Of a DNA stretch of 51,416 nt, positions 24,348-38,185 are shown piece by piece (within the stretch, counting starts at the first letter, position 1; each line of letters begins with the position of its first letter). Made by a program: the position numbers and the translations under genes. The stretch spans positions 1-51,416 of the forward strand of contig URMC01000002.1 in NCBI GenBank assembly GCA_900548735.1. Direction: 5' to 3'. Source of the stretch: an uncultured Eubacteriales bacterium. GTDB taxonomy: Bacteria > Bacillota > Clostridia > Oscillospirales > CAG-272. The notes beneath the pieces were generated by a model, which saw only the letters and a list, made by a program, of their open reading frames with translations, was not told the DNA's origin and ran no database searches.

Positions 24348-25232
24348 ATGATGGAATATATTCTGGAAAACGAACAACTGAAAGTGACCGTTTCGGATGA
24401 AGGCGCGGAAATCCGCTCCATCGTCGGCAAAAAGACCGGAACCGAATATCTCTGGCAAGGTGACCCTACCTATTGGTCCGGGCGCGCACCGGTGCTTTTC
24501 CCCATTTGCGGGCGGCTGACCGAGGGCAAGTATACCTGGAAAGGGCAGACGTATGAAATGAATCTGCACGGGTTTGCCCGCCGCAGTGTATTCACCGCAG
24601 AAAAGGTCGGTGACCATACAGTTACCTTCCTGTTGACCGCAAACGAAGAAACCAAAAAAATGTATCCGTTTGATTTTGAGTTCCGGATGACGTATACCCT
24701 GACGGACAGCACCGTGGAATGTCGTTATGACGTGAAAAACGAGAAAGAAAGGGATCTGCCTTTTGCCGTGGGCGGGCATCCCGGCTTCAACGTACCGATG
24801 GAAGCAGGCAAAAATTTTGAAGACTACCGGCTGGAATTTGCCTGTGCCAAAGAGCCGCGCGAGTTGGTATTCTCCGACACCTGTTTTGACACCGGCAAGA
24901 CCCGTGCGTTCCCGCTGGAGGAAGGCAGAATTCTTCCGCTCCGTCACAGCCTTTTTGATATTGACGCAGTGTTTCTTACCGATATGTGCCACAAGGTCAC
25001 GCTGGGAACCCCCGGTGGCACCCGGTCGCTGACGCTCAGTTTCAAAGGCTTTCCTCACGTCGGGTTCTGGCACAAACCCCGCACCAAAGCCCCATGTGTC
25101 TGCATTGAGCCGTGGTGCAGCGTTCCTTCCCCGGACGGCGTAATCGACGACTTTGCAACCAAAAAAGAGTTGACGCACTTAAAAAAGGGCGAGAGCTACA
25201 CCAACGCGTTTGAAATCACGATCTGTGAATAA
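24348..25232 (+). CDS. Aldose 1-epimerase (galactose mutarotase-like) family protein
   Basis: EYLWQGDPTYWSGRAPVLFPICGRL and GGHPGFN, FWHKP, CIEPW motifs of the LacX/aldose-epimerase family. Confidence 0.85.
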   Translation: MMEYILENEQLKVTVSDEGAEIRSIVGKKTGTEYLWQGDPTYWSGRAPVLFPICGRLTEGKYTWKGQTYEMNLHGFARRSVFTAEKVGDHTVTFLLTANEETKKMYPFDFEFRMTYTLTDSTVECRYDVKNEKERDLPFAVGGHPGFNVPMEAGKNFEDYRLEFACAKEPRELVFSDTCFDTGKTRAFPLEEGRILPLRHSLFDIDAVFLTDMCHKVTLGTPGGTRSLTLSFKGFPHVGFWHKPRTKAPCVCIEPWCSVPSPDGVIDDFATKKELTHLKKGESYTNAFEITICE

Positions 25233-25355: not shown

Positions 25356-25440
25356 TGGTGGGAGCGGGTGGATTCGGACCACCGAAGGCAGTGCCAGCAG
25401 ATTTACAGTCTGTCCCCTTTGGCCACTCGGGAACGCTCCC
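25356..25440 (-). tRNA. tRNA-Tyr(GTA): tRNA-Tyr (anticodon GTA), long variable arm, CCA encoded
   Basis: Reverse complement GGGAGCG...ACAGACTGTAAATCTGC...GGTCCGAATCCACCCGCTCCCACCA folds as a class II cloverleaf. Confidence 0.95.
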
Positions 25441-25483
25441 ATATGTTTGAAATGTATTCGGCGGCTCTGCCGCCGAATATCAC

Positions 25484-25558
25484 TGGAGCTGGTGAACGGA
25501 GTCGAACCATCAACCTGCTGATTACAAATCAGCTGCTCTGCCATTGAGCCACACCAGC
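25484..25558 (-). tRNA. tRNA-Thr(TGT): tRNA-Thr (anticodon TGT), CCA encoded
   Basis: Reverse complement GCTGGTGTGGCTCAATGGCAGAGCAGCTGATTTGTAATCAGCAGGTTGATGGTTCGACTCCGTTCACCAGCTCCA. Confidence 0.95.
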
Positions 25559-25575
25559 GATTTCGGAACGTTGCA

Positions 25576-25604
25576 ATTATACCACAGTCCTTGCCGCTTG
25601 TCAA
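25576..25604 (-). promoter_or_regulatory. Consensus sigma-A promoter for the tRNA unit
   Basis: Minus strand TTGACA, 17 nt, TGnTATAAT. Confidence 0.65.
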
Positions 25605-25681
25605 GCCCTTTTTGCAAAAAATGTGGTTTTTTCAAAAAGTTCGGCGGTGCCCCGCCCCGGCGTACCGGGGCGGGGCGGTTT

Positions 25682-29912: not shown

Positions 29913-30740
29913 CTATTTCGCGGCACGTATGCGGGCGTTTCGGAAAACAGACAGGTCAGGCGGGGCGTTTTCCCGCCCCTTTATCTCCCCGGTAAACGTT
30001 TTGCCCACCCACGGGTATTTTGCGCCCGCCATTTTGTTGTAGGGCAACAGTTCCACCGGTGACTCCCCGGCAAGTGCCGCAATGCCTTTCAGATTTTCCG
30101 GCGTGTCCGTGATTCCCGGAATCAGGGGCACGCGCAACAGATACGGCACGCCGCAGGATTGCAAATAACGGAGATTTTTGAGAATCGGCGCGTTATCCGC
30201 CCCGGTATAGTGCCGGTGCGCCGCGGGGTCTGCCAATTTTACGTCCATCATCACAAAATCGCAAAGCCGGACGATATTCCGAAAGACCTCCGGTGCGGCA
30301 AAACCGCTGGTCTCGATGGCTTTGTGTACTTCCAGCGCCTGCAAAAGTTCCCCGGTAAAATCGGGCTGAAAAAGCGGTTCCCCGCCCGAGAGCGTCACGC
30401 CGCCGCCGGAAGTGCGGAAAAAGTCTTTATCCCGTGAGAGCTTTGCGGCAAGCGCCGCCGCCTCCCACTCTTTGCCGATCTCCTCCACCAGCCCCTTGGG
30501 ACAGGCGTGCAGACACCTGGAAAGCCCGCGGCACTCCGGATGATCGCAGGGGATTTTGCACCGCCCGCAATGCAGGCACCCTTTTTCCCGCACCAGCACC
30601 CCGCGCCCAGCATCCAGCCCCTCCGGGTTATGGCACCACACGCACCGCAACGGGCATCCGCGCAAAAATACCGTAGTGCGCACACCGGGTCCATCGTTGA
30701 CCGAGAACTCTTTGATGTCAAAAATATATCCTTTTGCCAT
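29913..30740 (-). CDS. Glycyl-radical enzyme activating protein (radical SAM, with ferredoxin-like Cys-rich insert)
   Basis: MAKGYIFDIKEFSVNDGPGVRTTVFLRGCPLRCVWCHNPE (CX3CX2C) plus CLHCGRCKIPCDHPEC...CLHACP. The ATG overlaps the GRE TAA stop by 1 nt. The long N-terminal extension in the track is rejected. Confidence 0.9.
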   Translation of the reverse strand: MAKGYIFDIKEFSVNDGPGVRTTVFLRGCPLRCVWCHNPEGLDAGRGVLVREKGCLHCGRCKIPCDHPECRGLSRCLHACPKGLVEEIGKEWEAAALAAKLSRDKDFFRTSGGGVTLSGGEPLFQPDFTGELLQALEVHKAIETSGFAAPEVFRNIVRLCDFVMMDVKLADPAAHRHYTGADNAPILKNLRYLQSCGVPYLLRVPLIPGITDTPENLKGIAALAGESPVELLPYNKMAGAKYPWVGKTFTGEIKGRENAPPDLSVFRNARIRAAK

Positions 30741-32710
30741 TATACCATATATTCCTGCCGCGCGATCACGTGATCCTGATACTCCCGATCCAGCTCTACG
30801 AAATAAGCGCTCCAGCCCCAGATGCGCACCACCAGCTGACCGTAATTCTCCGGATGTTTCTGCGCGTCTTTCAGTTTCTCGGCATTGACGGCATTCAGTT
30901 GGAGCTGATGCCCGCCCCGCAGGATGAAAAACCGTACCAATTCCGCCAGTTTGGCGGTGCTTTCGGGGTCGGCAAACATCGAGGAGGCAAATTCCAGCGT
31001 GAGGGGCCCGCCGTTGCAGACCCGCCCCAGATGCTGCTTGGTAAAGGAACGGATTACCGAAACGGGACCCGGCGTTTTCGTGAACAGGTTGGGCGAAAAA
31101 TTCGTGCCGAACGGCTCGCCTTTGCGGCGCCCGTCCGCCGTGGCACCGATCTTGTTTGCGTGCCAAAGGTAATACATCGCGGTGCCGGTGCCCGCGCGAT
31201 AGCACCCGCCGTAGTCGTTCCGCTTGCCCTCCAGCCCGTCCGCAAAGTCGTCTAAGAGTCTGGTGGCAAGACTGTCCACCGCGTCGTCATCACATCCCAT
31301 TTTCGGGGATTCATAGCGCAAAAGCCGCAACAGTTGAGGGTCTTTTTCAAAATCCGTCTCCAACCCCGACAAAAGGCGCGGCACGTCCACATCCTTTTTT
31401 TTAAACACGTGACAGCGGATAGCGGCAAGCGCGTCCGCGGCGCCGGCAATACCGGTGACATGAAATCCGAAATTACGATAACGGCGCTCCGGGATCAGCA
31501 GATCATAGAGCGGAGAAGGAAGAAACGCCGCCGCGCGTTTCTTCGCGGTCTTTTCCACCGCACCGACGCGCACCGTGCTGTCCACCCCGGCAAGAAACGT
31601 TTCAAAATCTGGGGCGCCCGGCAGATACGAAAAGGTTGCCTCCCGCACCGCCTGCGGCAGATTATAGGCGCCGATGTTGACGATTTCATATCCCACACCG
31701 GGGATGATAAACTCCCAGCACGCCGCCACCACGTAATTGCATGCGTCCTCGTGCCGGTAGCCGTACGCTTCCAGTGCGGGGATGATTACGTCATCGTTGT
31801 TGTATTGCGGAACGCCCAGCCCCGCCGCCGTCAGTTCACTGCCGAGGCGGTAGACCTCAATCGGCGTTTTGGAACAAACGCGCAGATTGATTTTCGGATC
31901 AATCATCAAAAGGCGTTTGCTGACCCGCAGGCACATCTCGGAAAGGGCGTTGAAACAGTCGTTCCCCTCGGCGTCACAGCCGCCAAGCACCATGCTCTGC
32001 CCGTTGTCGCCCTGCTGTTGCCCGGGGTACAGGTCGCTGTCCTTGTTGAAAGAGAGAAAGAAATCGGCAAGCAGTTCCTCCGCGCTCTCCGGTGTTTCCA
32101 CCCCCGCCGCCAGGTCGTGCGCGAAATACGGGTACATATACTGGTCAAACCGCCCCACGGTATTGTGGTAACAGCCCTCCAACCACAGCGAAAAGTGCAG
32201 GATCCGGAAAAACTGCAACGCCTCGCGGAAGGTGGTGGCGGGCTTTCGCGGCACCACGGAAAGCACCGCCGCCACGTCGTTTCTCCCCATGCGCTGTGCC
32301 TCTGCCCGATACCGGTCGGTAAGAGAAAGAATAGCGGCGATCTCGCGCCGGGCATATTCGTCCGCGCGCTCCCGCACGGCATCCAGCCCTTCGCGGATGA
32401 GCGCCGCATAGTTCCCGCACAGATTGGAGGTGTACCCCAGTTCGTGAATCTCACCGTTGTTTGCGCGGTACTCCTCCCACTCCTCTTCGGTCATCACGTC
32501 GCCCGCCTTGCCCGTGGTGCGCAGAAACACGATCTGCTCCCCCGGCAGAATGTGCGGCTCCTCGGCGGCGGCAAGCCACTCGAATCTTCTCACAATGCGC
32601 TCGGCAAGCGGCAATTTCCCCGCCGAGAACTCCGCGGCAAAATCTTCCGTGACCTCTTTGCGGAAGGCGCGGTGTTTTTTCTGCAAGACATATTCGTAAG
32701 TTTCGGTCAT
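30740..32710 (-). CDS. Glycyl-radical enzyme, PFL2-like but compact (656 aa)
   Basis: C-terminal glycyl loop VVRIWGWSAYFVEL (Gly codon 30815-30817), Cys-loop AACWEF (Cys codon 31718-31720), GRFDQYMYPYF and ATADGRRKGEP motifs. ATG 32710 with RBS aaagagg. Confidence 0.85.
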   Translation of the reverse strand: MTETYEYVLQKKHRAFRKEVTEDFAAEFSAGKLPLAERIVRRFEWLAAAEEPHILPGEQIVFLRTTGKAGDVMTEEEWEEYRANNGEIHELGYTSNLCGNYAALIREGLDAVRERADEYARREIAAILSLTDRYRAEAQRMGRNDVAAVLSVVPRKPATTFREALQFFRILHFSLWLEGCYHNTVGRFDQYMYPYFAHDLAAGVETPESAEELLADFFLSFNKDSDLYPGQQQGDNGQSMVLGGCDAEGNDCFNALSEMCLRVSKRLLMIDPKINLRVCSKTPIEVYRLGSELTAAGLGVPQYNNDDVIIPALEAYGYRHEDACNYVVAACWEFIIPGVGYEIVNIGAYNLPQAVREATFSYLPGAPDFETFLAGVDSTVRVGAVEKTAKKRAAAFLPSPLYDLLIPERRYRNFGFHVTGIAGAADALAAIRCHVFKKKDVDVPRLLSGLETDFEKDPQLLRLLRYESPKMGCDDDAVDSLATRLLDDFADGLEGKRNDYGGCYRAGTGTAMYYLWHANKIGATADGRRKGEPFGTNFSPNLFTKTPGPVSVIRSFTKQHLGRVCNGGPLTLEFASSMFADPESTAKLAELVRFFILRGGHQLQLNAVNAEKLKDAQKHPENYGQLVVRIWGWSAYFVELDREYQDHVIARQEYMV

Positions 32711-32742
32711 AGAAGCCTCTTTCCGCACGGAACGTGCTGAAT

Positions 32743-32757: not shown

Positions 32758-32786
32758 ATTATAGCACGCCCCACCTGCGCTGTCAA
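32758..32786 (-). promoter_or_regulatory. Consensus sigma-A promoter of the GRE operon
   Basis: Minus strand TTGACA (32786-32781), 17 nt, TGcTATAAT (32763-32758). Confidence 0.65.
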
Positions 32787-34808: not shown

Positions 34809-35642
34809 ATGAACGAGTTTTGGGAAGCGGCAAAAAAGAAGATCCTTACCGCGGCACACCGCGGCGTTTCGGGCGGGAATATCCCCTGCAACACCGTGAC
34901 CGCCTATGAAATCGCGCTCCGCCAGGGCGCGGATATGATCGAGATTGACGTGGAGATGAGCGCGGACGGCAAGCTGTTCATCTTTCACCCGGGCATGGAG
35001 CCGGCGCACCTGTGGTGCGCGGAAAAGCTCTCCAACCTGACGGCGGAAGAAATTTCTCACCTGCGGTATGTCAACTATGACCGCGTTCCCACGCAGTTCG
35101 GCGTCAACACGCTGGATGAGGTATTGGAGCGCTTCGGAGGCCGTTGCTTTATCAATGTGGACAAGTTCTGGGGGCACCCGAAAGAGATTTACGCAGCGAT
35201 CTGCCGCCACAACTTAAAGGATCGGGTGCTGGTGAAATCCAACCCGACCGAAAAAGTGCTTTCGGTGCTGGAAGAGGTGGCACCGGACCTGCCCTTTATG
35301 CCGATCGTGAAGGACACGCACCCGCTCCATGGGGATCTGATGCGCCGCAACATCCGTTATGTCGGCGCGGAGGTGCTGTTTACCGAGGAAAGCGCGGAGG
35401 TTGCCAGCCCGGAGTTTATCGAAATGATGCACCGGGACGGAAAGTTGGTTTGGGTAAATGCCATTATCTACAACTACCGCCGCCAGCTCAGTGCCGGGCA
35501 CTCGGACGACCGGTCGCTTTGCGGCGACCCTGCCGACGGCTGGGGATGGCTGGCGCGCCGGGGGTTTGACTTTATTCAGACCGACTGGATGCAGATGATG
35601 ACCGAATACCTGAAAAAAGAAAATCTGCTGTATCGCAAATAA
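34809..35642 (+). CDS. Glycerophosphodiester phosphodiesterase family protein
   Basis: AAHRGVSGGNIPCNTVTAYEIALRQGADMIEIDV matches the GDPD HR(G)...E.D motif; RBS aaaggaga. Confidence 0.85.
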   Translation: MNEFWEAAKKKILTAAHRGVSGGNIPCNTVTAYEIALRQGADMIEIDVEMSADGKLFIFHPGMEPAHLWCAEKLSNLTAEEISHLRYVNYDRVPTQFGVNTLDEVLERFGGRCFINVDKFWGHPKEIYAAICRHNLKDRVLVKSNPTEKVLSVLEEVAPDLPFMPIVKDTHPLHGDLMRRNIRYVGAEVLFTEESAEVASPEFIEMMHRDGKLVWVNAIIYNYRRQLSAGHSDDRSLCGDPADGWGWLARRGFDFIQTDWMQMMTEYLKKENLLYRK

Positions 35643-35645
35643 TGC

Positions 35646-35674
35646 AAAAAAGGCGCCGTTCCGGCGCCTTTTTG
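35646..35674 (+). terminator. Intrinsic terminator
   Basis: aggcgccg-ttc-cggcgcct followed by T5. Confidence 0.75.
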
Positions 35675-35719
35675 CACACTGCCCCTCCTCTTTCATACAA
35701 TGGAAAAGGAGGTGAAACC

Positions 35720-36226
35720 ATGACACAGAAACATCATACCGACACGGCGGGGGCAACCGGCATGGCGGCGGCAACCGGCAGCCCGGCGTTCATCCGGCAG
35801 ATCTGCCGCGCCGTGCAGGGGGAACTTGCCGCTGTCGTGGGGTACACGTCAAACAGCGTGTTTCTTTCCCCCAATCTGCCCGCGGTGGCGGGGCTATACC
35901 GGGAAACTGCCATAACCGAAATGAAACACTATCGGCAGTTATCCGACCTGTTGCGCAATCTCGGCGCCTCGCCGTACCTGAAAATGCAGGTGCGCCCTAC
36001 CCCATACGTACTGAATGAAGATGCGGACTCCCACGCGATCGTGGTGGCGCGGCGGATGCTGCAGGAAAGCATCAACGGCGAAAAAGAGACGTCAACGGAG
36101 TACCGCCGGATCTCCGAGCAGTGCGGGGACGAAAAATTGCGGCAGTTTTTTGCCGGACTCTCGGCGGAAGAAGCCGGGCACGCCAAAGCCTTTGCCGCCG
36201 CGCTTTGCCGGTTGGATCGATCGTGA
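35720..36226 (+). CDS. Ferritin-like (rubrerythrin/CotJC-like) four-helix-bundle protein
   Basis: QGELAAVVGY and TEMKHYRQLSDLL, EKETSTEY, EEAGHAKAF resemble paired E...E-x-x-H di-metal motifs; RBS aaaggagg before ATG 35720. Confidence 0.6.
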   Translation: MTQKHHTDTAGATGMAAATGSPAFIRQICRAVQGELAAVVGYTSNSVFLSPNLPAVAGLYRETAITEMKHYRQLSDLLRNLGASPYLKMQVRPTPYVLNEDADSHAIVVARRMLQESINGEKETSTEYRRISEQCGDEKLRQFFAGLSAEEAGHAKAFAAALCRLDRS

Positions 36227-36344
36227 TGGGGCGATCCATGTGCGGGCGGCGTATGGATTGAGCGGAGTGCCGCAGAAGCGGGGCTTTTGCTCCTCCCGCG
36301 CCGCAATATTCCCTATGTTAAACTCTGTCGTTAAACGCTTTCAG

Positions 36345-36376
36345 AAAAGGCGGCACGCTGTGCGTGCCGCCTTTTC
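36345..36376. terminator. Bidirectional terminator between convergent genes
   Basis: ggcggcacg-ctgtg-cgtgccgcc flanked by A- and T-runs. Confidence 0.7.
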
Positions 36377-36378
36377 TC

Positions 36379-37278
36379 TTACTTGTTTTCCGCCATTTCT
36401 TTGCGATAGAAATCATATCTGCCGATGAGATAGCGACCCATCTCCACCATAAACTTCACGGCGTTGGGCTTGAAATCCCGCGGGAAGTGATGGAGGAACG
36501 CGTCTGCCTCAAAGGTCAGCTCACCGTCGTAATCAACCTCGGCAAGCGCCTTCATAATCTCCTCAAAGTTCATTTCGCTCATCCCCGGCAGGGTGTGCAT
36601 ATCGGCACGATAGTTGTTATCGTGCACGTGCAGGGCGTGCAGGCGGTCATGCCCCAACGTGCGGATGGCGTCCTGCGCCTCCTCGCCGACAATGCCACAG
36701 TGCCCAAGATCCAGGCATGCCACAAAATGCTCATCGTTCAGCGTATCGATATAGCGGCAGAACTCGGCGGCTCTGGAGCAGACGTCATGCCCGATGCATT
36801 TGCGCTTCGGCTCGTTCTGCCACATATTCTCCAATGCAACCTTCACGTTGTACTCTTTGGCGTAAGGAAGCAGGGATTTGTAGAACTCCATATTCTTTTC
36901 AAAAAGTTCCTCCTCGTGCCCGAGGTACTGCGTGTGATGAATCGGGTGCACGATAGCAATCTTGCCGCCAAGCAAAGCCGTGATTTCCAACGCCCGCACC
37001 TGACGGGGGAAGAAACGCTCCTCATACTCGTTCGGGTTTTTCCAGTTGAACACAAACGGCACGTGCGACTGATTAAAAGGAATCCCCAGCCGGTCGGCAT
37101 AGGCGCGCACTTCCAGGGCGCGGGTTTTGTATGCGTCCGTGTTGAAAATATCATCGTCCTTGGACATACAGAACAGCGACATATCGATTGCGTCATAGCC
37201 TGCATTTTTCAGAATATCAATCGATCCCTCAATGCCGAAGGTGCTCATCAAATGGCTGTTTTGCGTAGAAAGAATCAT
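36379..37278 (-). CDS. Sugar phosphate isomerase/epimerase (xylose-isomerase-like TIM barrel)
   Basis: 299 aa; AP-endonuclease-2/TIM-barrel pattern (ALENMW, HVHDN, LTFE). ATG 37278 with RBS aaggaga. Confidence 0.8.
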   Translation of the reverse strand: MILSTQNSHLMSTFGIEGSIDILKNAGYDAIDMSLFCMSKDDDIFNTDAYKTRALEVRAYADRLGIPFNQSHVPFVFNWKNPNEYEERFFPRQVRALEITALLGGKIAIVHPIHHTQYLGHEEELFEKNMEFYKSLLPYAKEYNVKVALENMWQNEPKRKCIGHDVCSRAAEFCRYIDTLNDEHFVACLDLGHCGIVGEEAQDAIRTLGHDRLHALHVHDNNYRADMHTLPGMSEMNFEEIMKALAEVDYDGELTFEADAFLHHFPRDFKPNAVKFMVEMGRYLIGRYDFYRKEMAENK

Positions 37279-37294
37279 TGTTTGTCTCCTTTTC

Positions 37295-38185
37295 TCAACA
37301 GTTTTCCAGTTTGGTAAACAGGTCTGCATACAGCGGGTCACGGCGGATGCGGCGCACGTAAATATAGTGGTCGCGCGCCATATCAAACGCGTAATTGGCG
37401 TTATCCGTGATAATCGGGCGGGGGATTTCCACCATCTCCAACGTGTCGGGGCGAACGATTGCCGCCATCGCCGTCACGTCCCAGATGATTTTGGACCACG
37501 CCTTGATGCCCTTGGCGTTATACGCGCGGGTCAGCTCCACCAAGTAATTGCAGAGCGGATTTTTGTCTTTCAGGTAATATTCCACCTCCGGGATCGTGGT
37601 CACAAACTCGGTGCACACGCCGTTGCAGGGGATCTGCACCAGCGGAATTCTGGAGTCAAAGACCACCTGCGCACCCGGCACGTCCTGATACAGGTTGAAC
37701 TCTCTGTTGTGGGGGAAGTGGAGCGCGTGGCCGCCCAGCCACACCAGTACGGCTTTTTCGGCAATGTCCGGCGCCATCAGAAGCGCGGAAGCCACATTGG
37801 TAATGGCGCCGATCGCTACGATGTAAACGGTTTCGTTACTCTCGCGCACCAGTCTGACAATGGCGCGCGCCGCGTCGGATTCCACCGGCTCTTTGGCATT
37901 GGGCAGATATTTTTCCGACCCGCGGTAGATCGGAATATCGGCGGCGGGGTTTACCAGCCCCACGATGTGTTTGATTTCCTCATAGCTTTTCTCCATCCCG
38001 TCCGCAGGGGAGACCGATCTGGAATTGAAGAAAGGCGCGGCGGTGATTGCCAGCAGTCTGACCCGGTCGGGCGAGAGCATGGCATAGGCAATGGTGTACT
38101 GATCATCGATCTCGTTATACGCATCGGTGTCCAGAATCACCGCTTTCGGGGTGTTTTTTTTCAATTCCTCCGGAATGTTCAGCAT
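37295..38185 (-). CDS. Nucleoside hydrolase (IUNH family)
   Basis: N-terminal AVILDTDAYNEIDDQYTIAYA matches the DxDxxxDD Ca-binding fingerprint. ATG 38185 with RBS aaggagg. Confidence 0.85.
   Translation of the reverse strand: MLNIPEELKKNTPKAVILDTDAYNEIDDQYTIAYAMLSPDRVRLLAITAAPFFNSRSVSPADGMEKSYEEIKHIVGLVNPAADIPIYRGSEKYLPNAKEPVESDAARAIVRLVRESNETVYIVAIGAITNVASALLMAPDIAEKAVLVWLGGHALHFPHNREFNLYQDVPGAQVVFDSRIPLVQIPCNGVCTEFVTTIPEVEYYLKDKNPLCNYLVELTRAYNAKGIKAWSKIIWDVTAMAAIVRPDTLEMVEIPRPIITDNANYAFDMARDHYIYVRRIRRDPLYADLFTKLENC

Follow-up and report, generated by a model that had tools for sequence, protein, structure and literature searches.

Glycyl radical enzymes (GREs) perform some highly consequential reactions in the anaerobic gut, among them the formation of trimethylamine, p-cresol, skatole, and H2S, and the use of hydroxyproline. 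We describe a compact GRE encoded on a 51,416-nucleotide stretch of DNA from an uncultured Eubacteriales bacterium (contig URMC01000002.1, positions 1 to 51,416; hereafter, the window). The source genome is a 1.72-Mb metagenome-assembled genome (MAG) with a completeness of 78%, and the window GRE is its single match to the Gly_radical model. The enzyme is short, it places a Trp on each side of the radical Gly (W-G-W), and it heads an operon that ends in 2 glycosidase genes. The W-G-W compact GREs are a real, conserved, and uncharacterized subfamily of a known kind of enzyme, with a distinct architecture and active site.

The GRE gene and its operon

The gene opens a five-gene operon in the order GRE, activating enzyme (activase), HAD phosphatase, GH36, and GH51, with gaps of at most 10 nt (Table 1). 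One consensus promoter and a terminal hairpin together delimit the operon. An earlier note on this DNA had described the GRE reading frame, its motifs, and the codons of the radical residues; recomputation returned the same 656-aa frame on the minus strand and every one of these positions. The note had also seen no start for a protein of canonical length, and this holds as well. The sole longer option is GTG 32728, which gives an open reading frame (ORF) of 662 aa at 30740-32728. The frame comprises 667 open codons in total and opens just 11 codons upstream of the ATG; an N-terminus of canonical length is therefore impossible, and a longer reading frame is rejected. An AAGAGG Shine-Dalgarno sequence lies 6-7 nt upstream of the ATG, and the starts of 17 out of 17 aligned homologues fall within one residue of it.

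Table 1. Coordinates of the GRE operon and of the motifs within the GRE gene
Feature	Position	Strand	Basis and remarks
Promoter-like site TTGACA, 17 nt, TG-TATAAT	32758..32786	-	12/12 matches to the sigma-70 consensus; about 48 nt upstream of the GRE ATG
Compact GRE, 656 aa + stop	30740..32710	-	ORF, Pfam, AlphaFold model, TM (template modeling) score to solved GREs
Asn96 codon of the GRE	32423..32425	-	Position of the conserved His in canonical PFL2-type GREs
Cys loop AACWEF, aa 329-334	31709..31726	-	Motif; Cys331 (codon 31718-31720, thiyl radical), Trp332, Glu333 (base)
Gly loop RIWGWSAYF, aa 629-637	30800..30826	-	Motif; radical site Gly632 (codon 30815-30817) between Trp631 and Trp633
GRE activase, 275 aa	29913..30740	-	Radical SAM CX3CX2C and 7-Cys insert; TIGR02494 255 bits, cut-off 174
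HAD-IA hydrolase, beta-phosphoglucomutase/sugar-phosphatase-like, 225 aa	29227..29904	-	Starts 8 nt past the activase stop
Cytoplasmic GH36, raffinose-synthase/alkaline alpha-galactosidase type, 686 aa	27191..29251	-	Raffinose_syn 186 bits
GH51 alpha-L-arabinofuranosidase, 499 aa	25682..27181	-	Pfam; final gene of the operon
GC-rich hairpin, then T-rich tract	25648..25677	-	Directly past the GH51 stop; likely end of the operon

The activase ATG overlaps the GRE stop (TAATG), and this dedicated activase is translationally coupled to the GRE. The activase is compact too: it has 275 aa, where PFL2-type activases have about 300. Only seven Cys are found in its ferredoxin-like insert (CX2CX2CX3C, then C-x5-C-x3-C-P), which leaves the motif for a second auxiliary cluster incomplete. 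Further along the operon, GH36 has an alternative start, an ATG that overlaps the HAD stop and would give 679 aa. The nearest structure to GH36 is Arabidopsis 7exf, and both catalytic Asp motifs, KVD and SDDF, are kept. No signal peptide is visible on GH36 or GH51 of the window.

Family, fold, and active site

The protein is matched by the Pfam models PFL-like (242 bits) and Gly_radical (62 bits), and its further landmarks are FREALQ at aa 161, GRFDQYMYPYF at aa 186, and ATADGRRKGEP at aa 523. The published GRE fingerprint around the radical Gly reads RVxG[FWY]x6-8[FL]x4Qx2[IV]x2R (PMC13450708). The C-terminus of the window GRE keeps this fingerprint as R629-I-W-G632-W-SAYFVE-L-DREY-Q-DH-V-IA-R, that is, in the form R-[IV]-x-G-[FWY]-x6-L-x4-Q-x2-V-x2-R; the sole departure is Val to Ile at position 2.

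No NCBIfam model for a GRE family reaches its cut-off. The best match is TIGR01774 (PFL2/glycerol dehydratase), with 279 bits against a cut-off of 678; NF007437 (YbiW/PflD-type equivalog) gives 212 bits against 1109, and the pyruvate formate-lyase model TIGR01255 gives 77 bits against 994. Every match is far under its cut-off, and membership in any curated NCBIfam family is rejected. One public source names a homologue (P0119) "pyruvate formate-lyase." We reject this label: it cannot be right, because the Cys loop has a single Cys (A-A-C-W-E) in place of the two adjacent Cys of pyruvate formate-lyase, and because the score on the corresponding model is only 77 bits.

The length and motifs of the window GRE recur widely. 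Many homologues of 655-659 aa, down to 60% identity, are present in a large protein collection; when 17 such proteins are aligned, neither AACWEF nor VVRIWGWSAYFVELD varies. The GRE cluster comprises 84 ORFs, which come from the window, two metagenome loci, and 80 genome loci. RIWGWSAYF is present in 76 of the 84, and AACWEF in 75. One genome per prokaryotic species was scanned for AACWEFI[IV] or WGWSAYFV, which returned at least 595 confirmed relatives. Most of the carriers listed are Clostridia MAGs recovered from the guts of humans, ruminants, and birds; the cultured Ructibacterium gallinarum is also among them. Its strain DSM 107454 has one W-G-W copy beside a GH36 gene (locus L062) and another at L073. 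When 1.84 billion cluster representatives were searched exhaustively with HMMER, the hits ranked in 3 tiers: proteins of 640-709 aa with R[IV]WGWS[AG]YF and AACWE at the top, proteins of 664-771 aa with RVWGFSAYF (W-G-F) second, and, appearing only under about 255 bits, canonical RVAGYSA/GCVE enzymes of about 790 aa.

The phylogeny agrees with a distinct subfamily, as the earlier note had suggested. In a tree of 94 full-length GRE representatives rooted on Escherichia coli PflB, the 26 W-G-W proteins (641-709 aa) are monophyletic, with a support of 100 and a long stem (0.6). Close to them stands a well-supported clade of mostly W-G-F proteins. The PFL2-type radiation encloses both clades, neither of which includes E. 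coli YbiW or PflD. The W-G-W and C-W-E motif set is common, yet no characterized family that carries it was found. Literature on the GREs of Faecalibacterium, similarity networks, glycosidases, YbiW/PflD, and the motif strings was searched, and no description of the compact W-G-W clade was found there. A June 2026 review of the superfamily covers formate lyases, decarboxylases, X-succinate synthases, eliminases, isomerases, and aminoacyl radical enzymes, gives a typical size of 80-100 kDa, and stresses that whole GRE clades are still without a function; it does not mention a compact Trp-flanked clade (PMC13450708).

Short length and both motifs are a conserved family trait, not an accident or a truncation. 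The window GRE is 131 residues shorter than the B12-independent glycerol dehydratase of Clostridium butyricum (GD, 787 aa; 1r8w) and 154 residues shorter than E. coli YbiW (810 aa), as might be expected of a truncated, decaying, or misassembled copy of a normal-length GRE that has lost its function. Against this reading, hundreds of genomes share this length, the catalytic residues do not vary, the model gives a confident and complete fold, a cognate activase is coupled to the gene, and the frame cannot be extended. A dead or truncated gene is refuted by the conservation data, and we assign it a negligible probability.

The fold was modeled with AlphaFold. A first model, built from 17 sequences, had a predicted local distance difference test (pLDDT) score of 77.6 and a disordered Gly loop. 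It was replaced by a model from a 68-sequence alignment, with a pLDDT of 92.5, a predicted TM score (pTM) of 0.93, and every barrel strand present. In the secondary-structure string of this model, Cys331 and Gly632 sit at hairpin tips, the Gly632 hairpin being formed by strands 627-630 and 633-636. Foldseek gives query-normalized TM scores of 0.86-0.88 against GD, CutC, PflD, the GRE 1,2-propanediol dehydratase of Roseburia inulinivorans (PD; 5i2g), and YbiW. The predicted structure is a complete 10-stranded beta/alpha GRE barrel with Cys331 and Gly632 on two finger loops.

Which residues are missing depends on the reference. A family-profile alignment pairs GRE residues 114-654 with GD residues 213-785; of the 131 residues missing relative to GD, 99 are N-terminal of residue 114, in the helical region, and 32 are internal, mainly from the Cys loop to the second half-barrel. 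Relative to YbiW, 69 of the 154 missing residues fall before Asn96 and 85 within residues 96-655; part of the 85 lies in the helical segment 122-146, and most others come after the Cys loop. The earlier view that the missing residues are mostly N-terminal therefore stands against GD and applies only in part against YbiW. In other GREs, the N-terminal helices form a conserved dimer interface (PMC13450708). Since about 100 residues are missing here, the oligomeric state of the compact enzyme may differ.

A column survey over 26 W-G-W, 26 W-G-F, and 42 canonical GRE representatives locates the differences in the active site. Trp631, before the radical Gly, is Trp in every W-G-W and every W-G-F representative (26/26 in each group), against Ala, Ser, Thr, or Gly in 38/42 canonical enzymes. 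Trp332, between Cys and Glu, is Trp in 25/26 W-G-W proteins; canonical enzymes have Val in 22/42 and Trp in 5/42. Trp633, after the Gly, is found in 26/26 W-G-W proteins and in only 6/42 canonical enzymes. The earlier note had called both motifs variant fingerprints. This is apt for the Trp before Gly and the Trp between Cys and Glu, which are truly unusual; it does not extend to the Trp after Gly, which the published RVxG[FWY] permits (PMC13450708).

Two further substitutions concern residues with a role in catalysis. Asn96 is Asn in 25/26 W-G-W proteins and His in 40/42 canonical enzymes, and it aligns with YbiW His165. In GD, His164 is the general acid that protonates the leaving hydroxyl (PMC13450708). 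We infer that YbiW His165 is the equivalent of GD His164, in which case the general-acid His would be replaced by Asn96 in the compact GRE. The radical machinery itself aligns throughout: Cys331 with GD Cys433, and Glu333 with GD Glu435 (C331-W-E333 vs C433-V-E435). Asn345, which is Asn in 24/26 W-G-W proteins and varied in canonical enzymes, aligns with GD Asp447, a residue after the Cys loop that we take to be catalytic in the dehydratase.

In addition, the W-G-W clade has a set of polar residues of its own: His182, Asp224, Asp226, Tyr228, Gln232, Asp235, Asn236, Asp271, Lys273, Asn275, Gln302, Tyr303, His417, Arg505, Tyr514, Thr571, Glu573 (Lys in canonical enzymes), and His601. Many of these lie on predicted barrel strands, the location of GRE active-site residues. 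Judged by its composition, the repertoire resembles a pocket for a polyol or a sugar.

Linkage to plant-sugar enzymes and a proposed role

We compared the surroundings of the GRE in 80 genome loci and the window (81 in all). The activase is directly downstream of the GRE in 69/81 loci. A GH36 gene, of Raffinose_syn or Melibiase type, lies within 8 kb in 24/80 loci. The GRE-GH36 linkage is scattered over every major branch of the GRE tree, a distribution that takes at least 8-13 gains or losses to explain; the association has therefore recurred and does not go back to one inherited arrangement. Of 41 genomes from the same genus and order, 8 carry the GRE. Exactly these 8 also carry the window-type GH36, and in 7 of them both genes are on one contig. 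These co-occurrences are not independent events, because the genes move as a cassette, which is clearly gained and lost as one unit.

Other recurrent neighbors encode GH51, GH127, GH2, a GH94-like enzyme, BD-FAE and GDSL esterases, short-chain dehydrogenases/reductases, aldo-keto reductases, AraC and LacI regulators, DUF4867, L-fucose isomerase, and aldose 1-epimerase. A Pfam tally of 109 same-strand neighbors is heterogeneous, and besides GH36 and the esterases there is no dominant partner. What these surroundings have in common is a connection with plant-glycan side-chain sugars, chiefly D-galactose and L-arabinose, but they do not reveal a single pathway.

The link of W-G-W GREs to plant-sugar utilization is well supported. 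Since the GRE travels with enzymes that release plant sugars, it is probably a radical step in the anaerobic sugar breakdown of gut bacteria. The reading that we favor, at somewhat better than an even chance, is a functional compact GRE that acts as a Cys-x-Glu (CXE)-type radical eliminase/isomerase on a sugar freed by the linked glycosidases. The most likely substrate is a neutral sugar released in the cytoplasm by these glycosidases: D-galactose, L-arabinose, or a close derivative. All known GRE 1,2-eliminases and the isomerases HplG, YbiW, and PflD use CXE chemistry, in which the thiyl radical takes a hydrogen next to a Glu-bound or deprotonated hydroxyl and the neighboring C-O, C-N, or C-S bond breaks (PMC13450708). 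The earlier note had read eliminase chemistry from the retained Cys-x-Glu, in agreement with this distribution of CXE across 1,2-eliminases and the sugar and hydroxyproline isomerases.

Catalysis would begin when the activase puts the radical on Gly632, from which it would move to Cys331. The Cys331 thiyl radical would then take a hydrogen from a hydroxyl-bearing carbon of the sugar or a sugar-derived polyol, and Glu333 would remove the proton from that hydroxyl. The ketyl radical would expel the adjacent oxygen substituent (hydroxyl, ring oxygen, or aglycone), and the alpha-keto radical would regain a hydrogen from Cys331 to yield a deoxy-keto product. The logic would be that of the GRE 1,2-eliminases and the YbiW/PflD sugar isomerases, but with Asn96 in place of the acid His and a pocket rebuilt with clade-specific polar residues. 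As the acid His is an Asn, departure of the leaving group would have to be helped differently: a clade-specific Asp, His, or Tyr might assist, or the leaving group might be the ring oxygen or the aglycone, as in YbiW.

In another reading, the GRE would cleave an intact glycoside, by hydrogen abstraction at C2 and subsequent loss of the aglycone, and would work beside GH36 rather than after it. The tight coupling of GRE and GH36 is consistent with such a reaction, as is the abundance of conserved Trp, Tyr, Asp, and Asn, residues typical of sugar binding; in chemical terms, a YbiW-type mechanism on a glycoside would expel the anomeric substituent. Yet the scheme is deduced from start to finish, GRE active sites are small and buried, the compact enzyme has less structure around its barrel, and many loci are without any glycosidase. 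We consider it highly improbable.

Several observations weigh against the favored role in the breakdown of glycosidase-released sugars. About two-thirds of the loci have no GH36 within 8 kb, and a minority lie among housekeeping genes (metG-tatD, nrdD). A phosphorylated intermediate is hinted at by the HAD phosphatase, yet this gene is confined to the closest relatives (3 loci). Genes for a kinase, a transporter, and an aldolase are all missing from the operon, and the pathway around the GRE is not visible in it. Finally, without the general-acid His, the chemistry may differ from that of known dehydratases.

A possible role of the GRE as a substitute for missing Leloir or arabinose-isomerase genes was considered in 26 genomes of the genus, which include that of the window (78% complete). 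Just 1 of them has a galactokinase that passes the TIGR00131 cut-off; a GHMP kinase of about 430 aa, scoring about 95-140 bits, is present in every one. AraA (L-arabinose isomerase) occurs in 3/26, unrelated to the presence of the GRE, and was not found in the 78%-complete genome of the window despite its cytoplasmic GH51. Entry routes for hexoses and pentoses may be unusual in this genus, or the MAGs may be incomplete.

A bolder claim, which we put forward tentatively and hold to be doubtful, is that W-G-W enzymes are the first GREs to act on unphosphorylated plant sugars freed by GH36, GH51, or GH127: D-galactose, L-arabinose, and their glycosides. If this is true, hexoses and pentoses would enter catabolism in gut and rumen Clostridia by a radical, oxygen-free route. 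In that case, the Trp-Gly-Trp site, together with the shortened N-terminal dimerization region, would be a new structural solution for storing and gating a glycyl radical. The clade is large (at least 595 species genomes), its members are 100-150 residues smaller, with Trp on both sides of the Gly and the general-acid His lost, and it is repeatedly tied to glycosidases that free galactose and arabinose from dietary plant glycans. Once the substrate is identified, anaerobic carbohydrate metabolism would probably gain a new reaction class, and a widespread misannotation as "pyruvate formate-lyase" would be corrected. The compact scaffold may also reveal what a GRE can do without and how the sequence of the Gly loop sets activase specificity and radical stability.

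The loci contain further glycyl radical systems. A second, unrelated GRE (25-29% identity to the window GRE, 668-766 aa) is encoded at L062:5005-7008, L082:5477-7774, and L024:2016-4211(-), with Cys loops GGCDE[EQ] and, in at least one case, the Gly loop RIGGFSVQF. In L062 and L082, this second GRE is encoded next to the compact one, with an activase of its own alongside; it may be another uncharacterized type of GRE. Five loci (L026, L037, L041, L076, and L077) place the compact GRE-activase pair beside nrdD and a second activase, which brings two glycyl radical systems together. A single in-frame TGA is found in the GH36 partner gene of one related genome (G009:C61:52630-54642), whose GRE is intact.

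Other genes surround the operon in the window. An aldose 1-epimerase (mutarotase) gene at 24348-25229 (+) converges on the operon end and fits the galactose/arabinose theme. Past the terminal hairpin are a second perfect sigma-70 promoter at 25604-25576 (-), tRNA-Thr(TGT), tRNA-Tyr(GTA), and a long terminator hairpin (25356-25604). On the other side, beyond a divergent typA/bipA, positions 34809-37386 encode a GDPD-DUF4996 phosphodiesterase, a rubrerythrin/ferritin-like protein, and a xylose-isomerase-like TIM-barrel protein; no link was found between these genes and the GRE operon.

Comparison with known and related GREs

GD and PD are the best matches of the compact GRE in sequence and fold taken together (307 bits with the family profile; TM 0.86-0.88). 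They share with it the 10-stranded barrel, the Cys-x-Glu loop, the GRFDQYMYPY and DGR motifs, and a PFL2-type activase. They differ in that identity is only 22-24% and in the 131 residues that separate the compact enzyme from GD. Within the active site, the His164 position of GD is Asn96 (an equivalence inferred via YbiW His165), Asp447 is Asn345, and Trp631 and Trp332 are found before the Gly and between Cys and Glu.

This likeness raises the question of a small glycerol or 1,2-diol dehydratase, acting on glycerol or a diol that GH36 frees from galactosyl-glycerol-type substrates. The match to GD and the retained CXE speak for it. The near-uniform Asn at the His164 and Asp447 positions across the clade, the replacement of GD Ser282 by a different residue in W-G-W enzymes, and a TIGR01774 score far under its cut-off speak against it. 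The loci also have no genes for 1,3-propanediol dehydrogenase, aldehyde dehydrogenase, or other parts of a diol pathway or microcompartment near the compact GRE. We judge a diol dehydratase to be quite improbable.

YbiW and PflD offer a different model. According to the review's account of the original work, they are C-O lyases of 1,5-anhydroglucitol-6-phosphate and 1,5-anhydromannitol-6-phosphate, or "GRE isomerases" (Ma et al. 2024 JACS, via PMC13450708). They are the only characterized GREs that act on sugars, both use CXE, and PflD is among the top structural matches of the compact GRE. In the E. coli ybiY-ybiW-ybiV cluster, a HAD sugar phosphatase stands beside the GRE, as in the window operon. 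By analogy, the compact enzyme could be a sugar-phosphate C-O lyase that opens the ring of a phosphorylated anhydro- or deoxy-sugar, with the HAD protein handling the phosphate ester.

The differences are substantial. YbiW and PflD, with 765-810 aa, branch apart from the compact clades in the tree. Both retain His165, and their Gly loop reads Ala-Gly-Tyr; the compact GRE has Asn at the His165 position and scores far under the NF007437 cut-off. Their neighbors, phosphotransferase system (PTS) components and a fructose-6-phosphate aldolase, are absent around the compact GRE: neither PTS genes nor kinase or fsa-type aldolase genes accompany it in the window or in most loci. In addition, the HAD gene accompanies the GRE in 3 loci only. 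A lyase for sugar phosphates is a candidate that we regard as unlikely, and we retain the CXE-type eliminase/isomerase for glycosidase-released sugars as the preferred reading.

The neighboring compact clade is that of the W-G-F proteins (RVWGFSAYF, about 664-771 aa), which are uncharacterized as well. They share the Trp before Gly, often the Trp of C-W-E, a partial replacement of His by Asn, and a reduced length. They differ from the W-G-W enzymes in having Phe or Tyr after the Gly and a Cys loop of the form [AG]CWE[P/I/L], and they form a separate, well-supported clade without most of the polar residues specific to W-G-W enzymes; Glu573, for example, is Lys.

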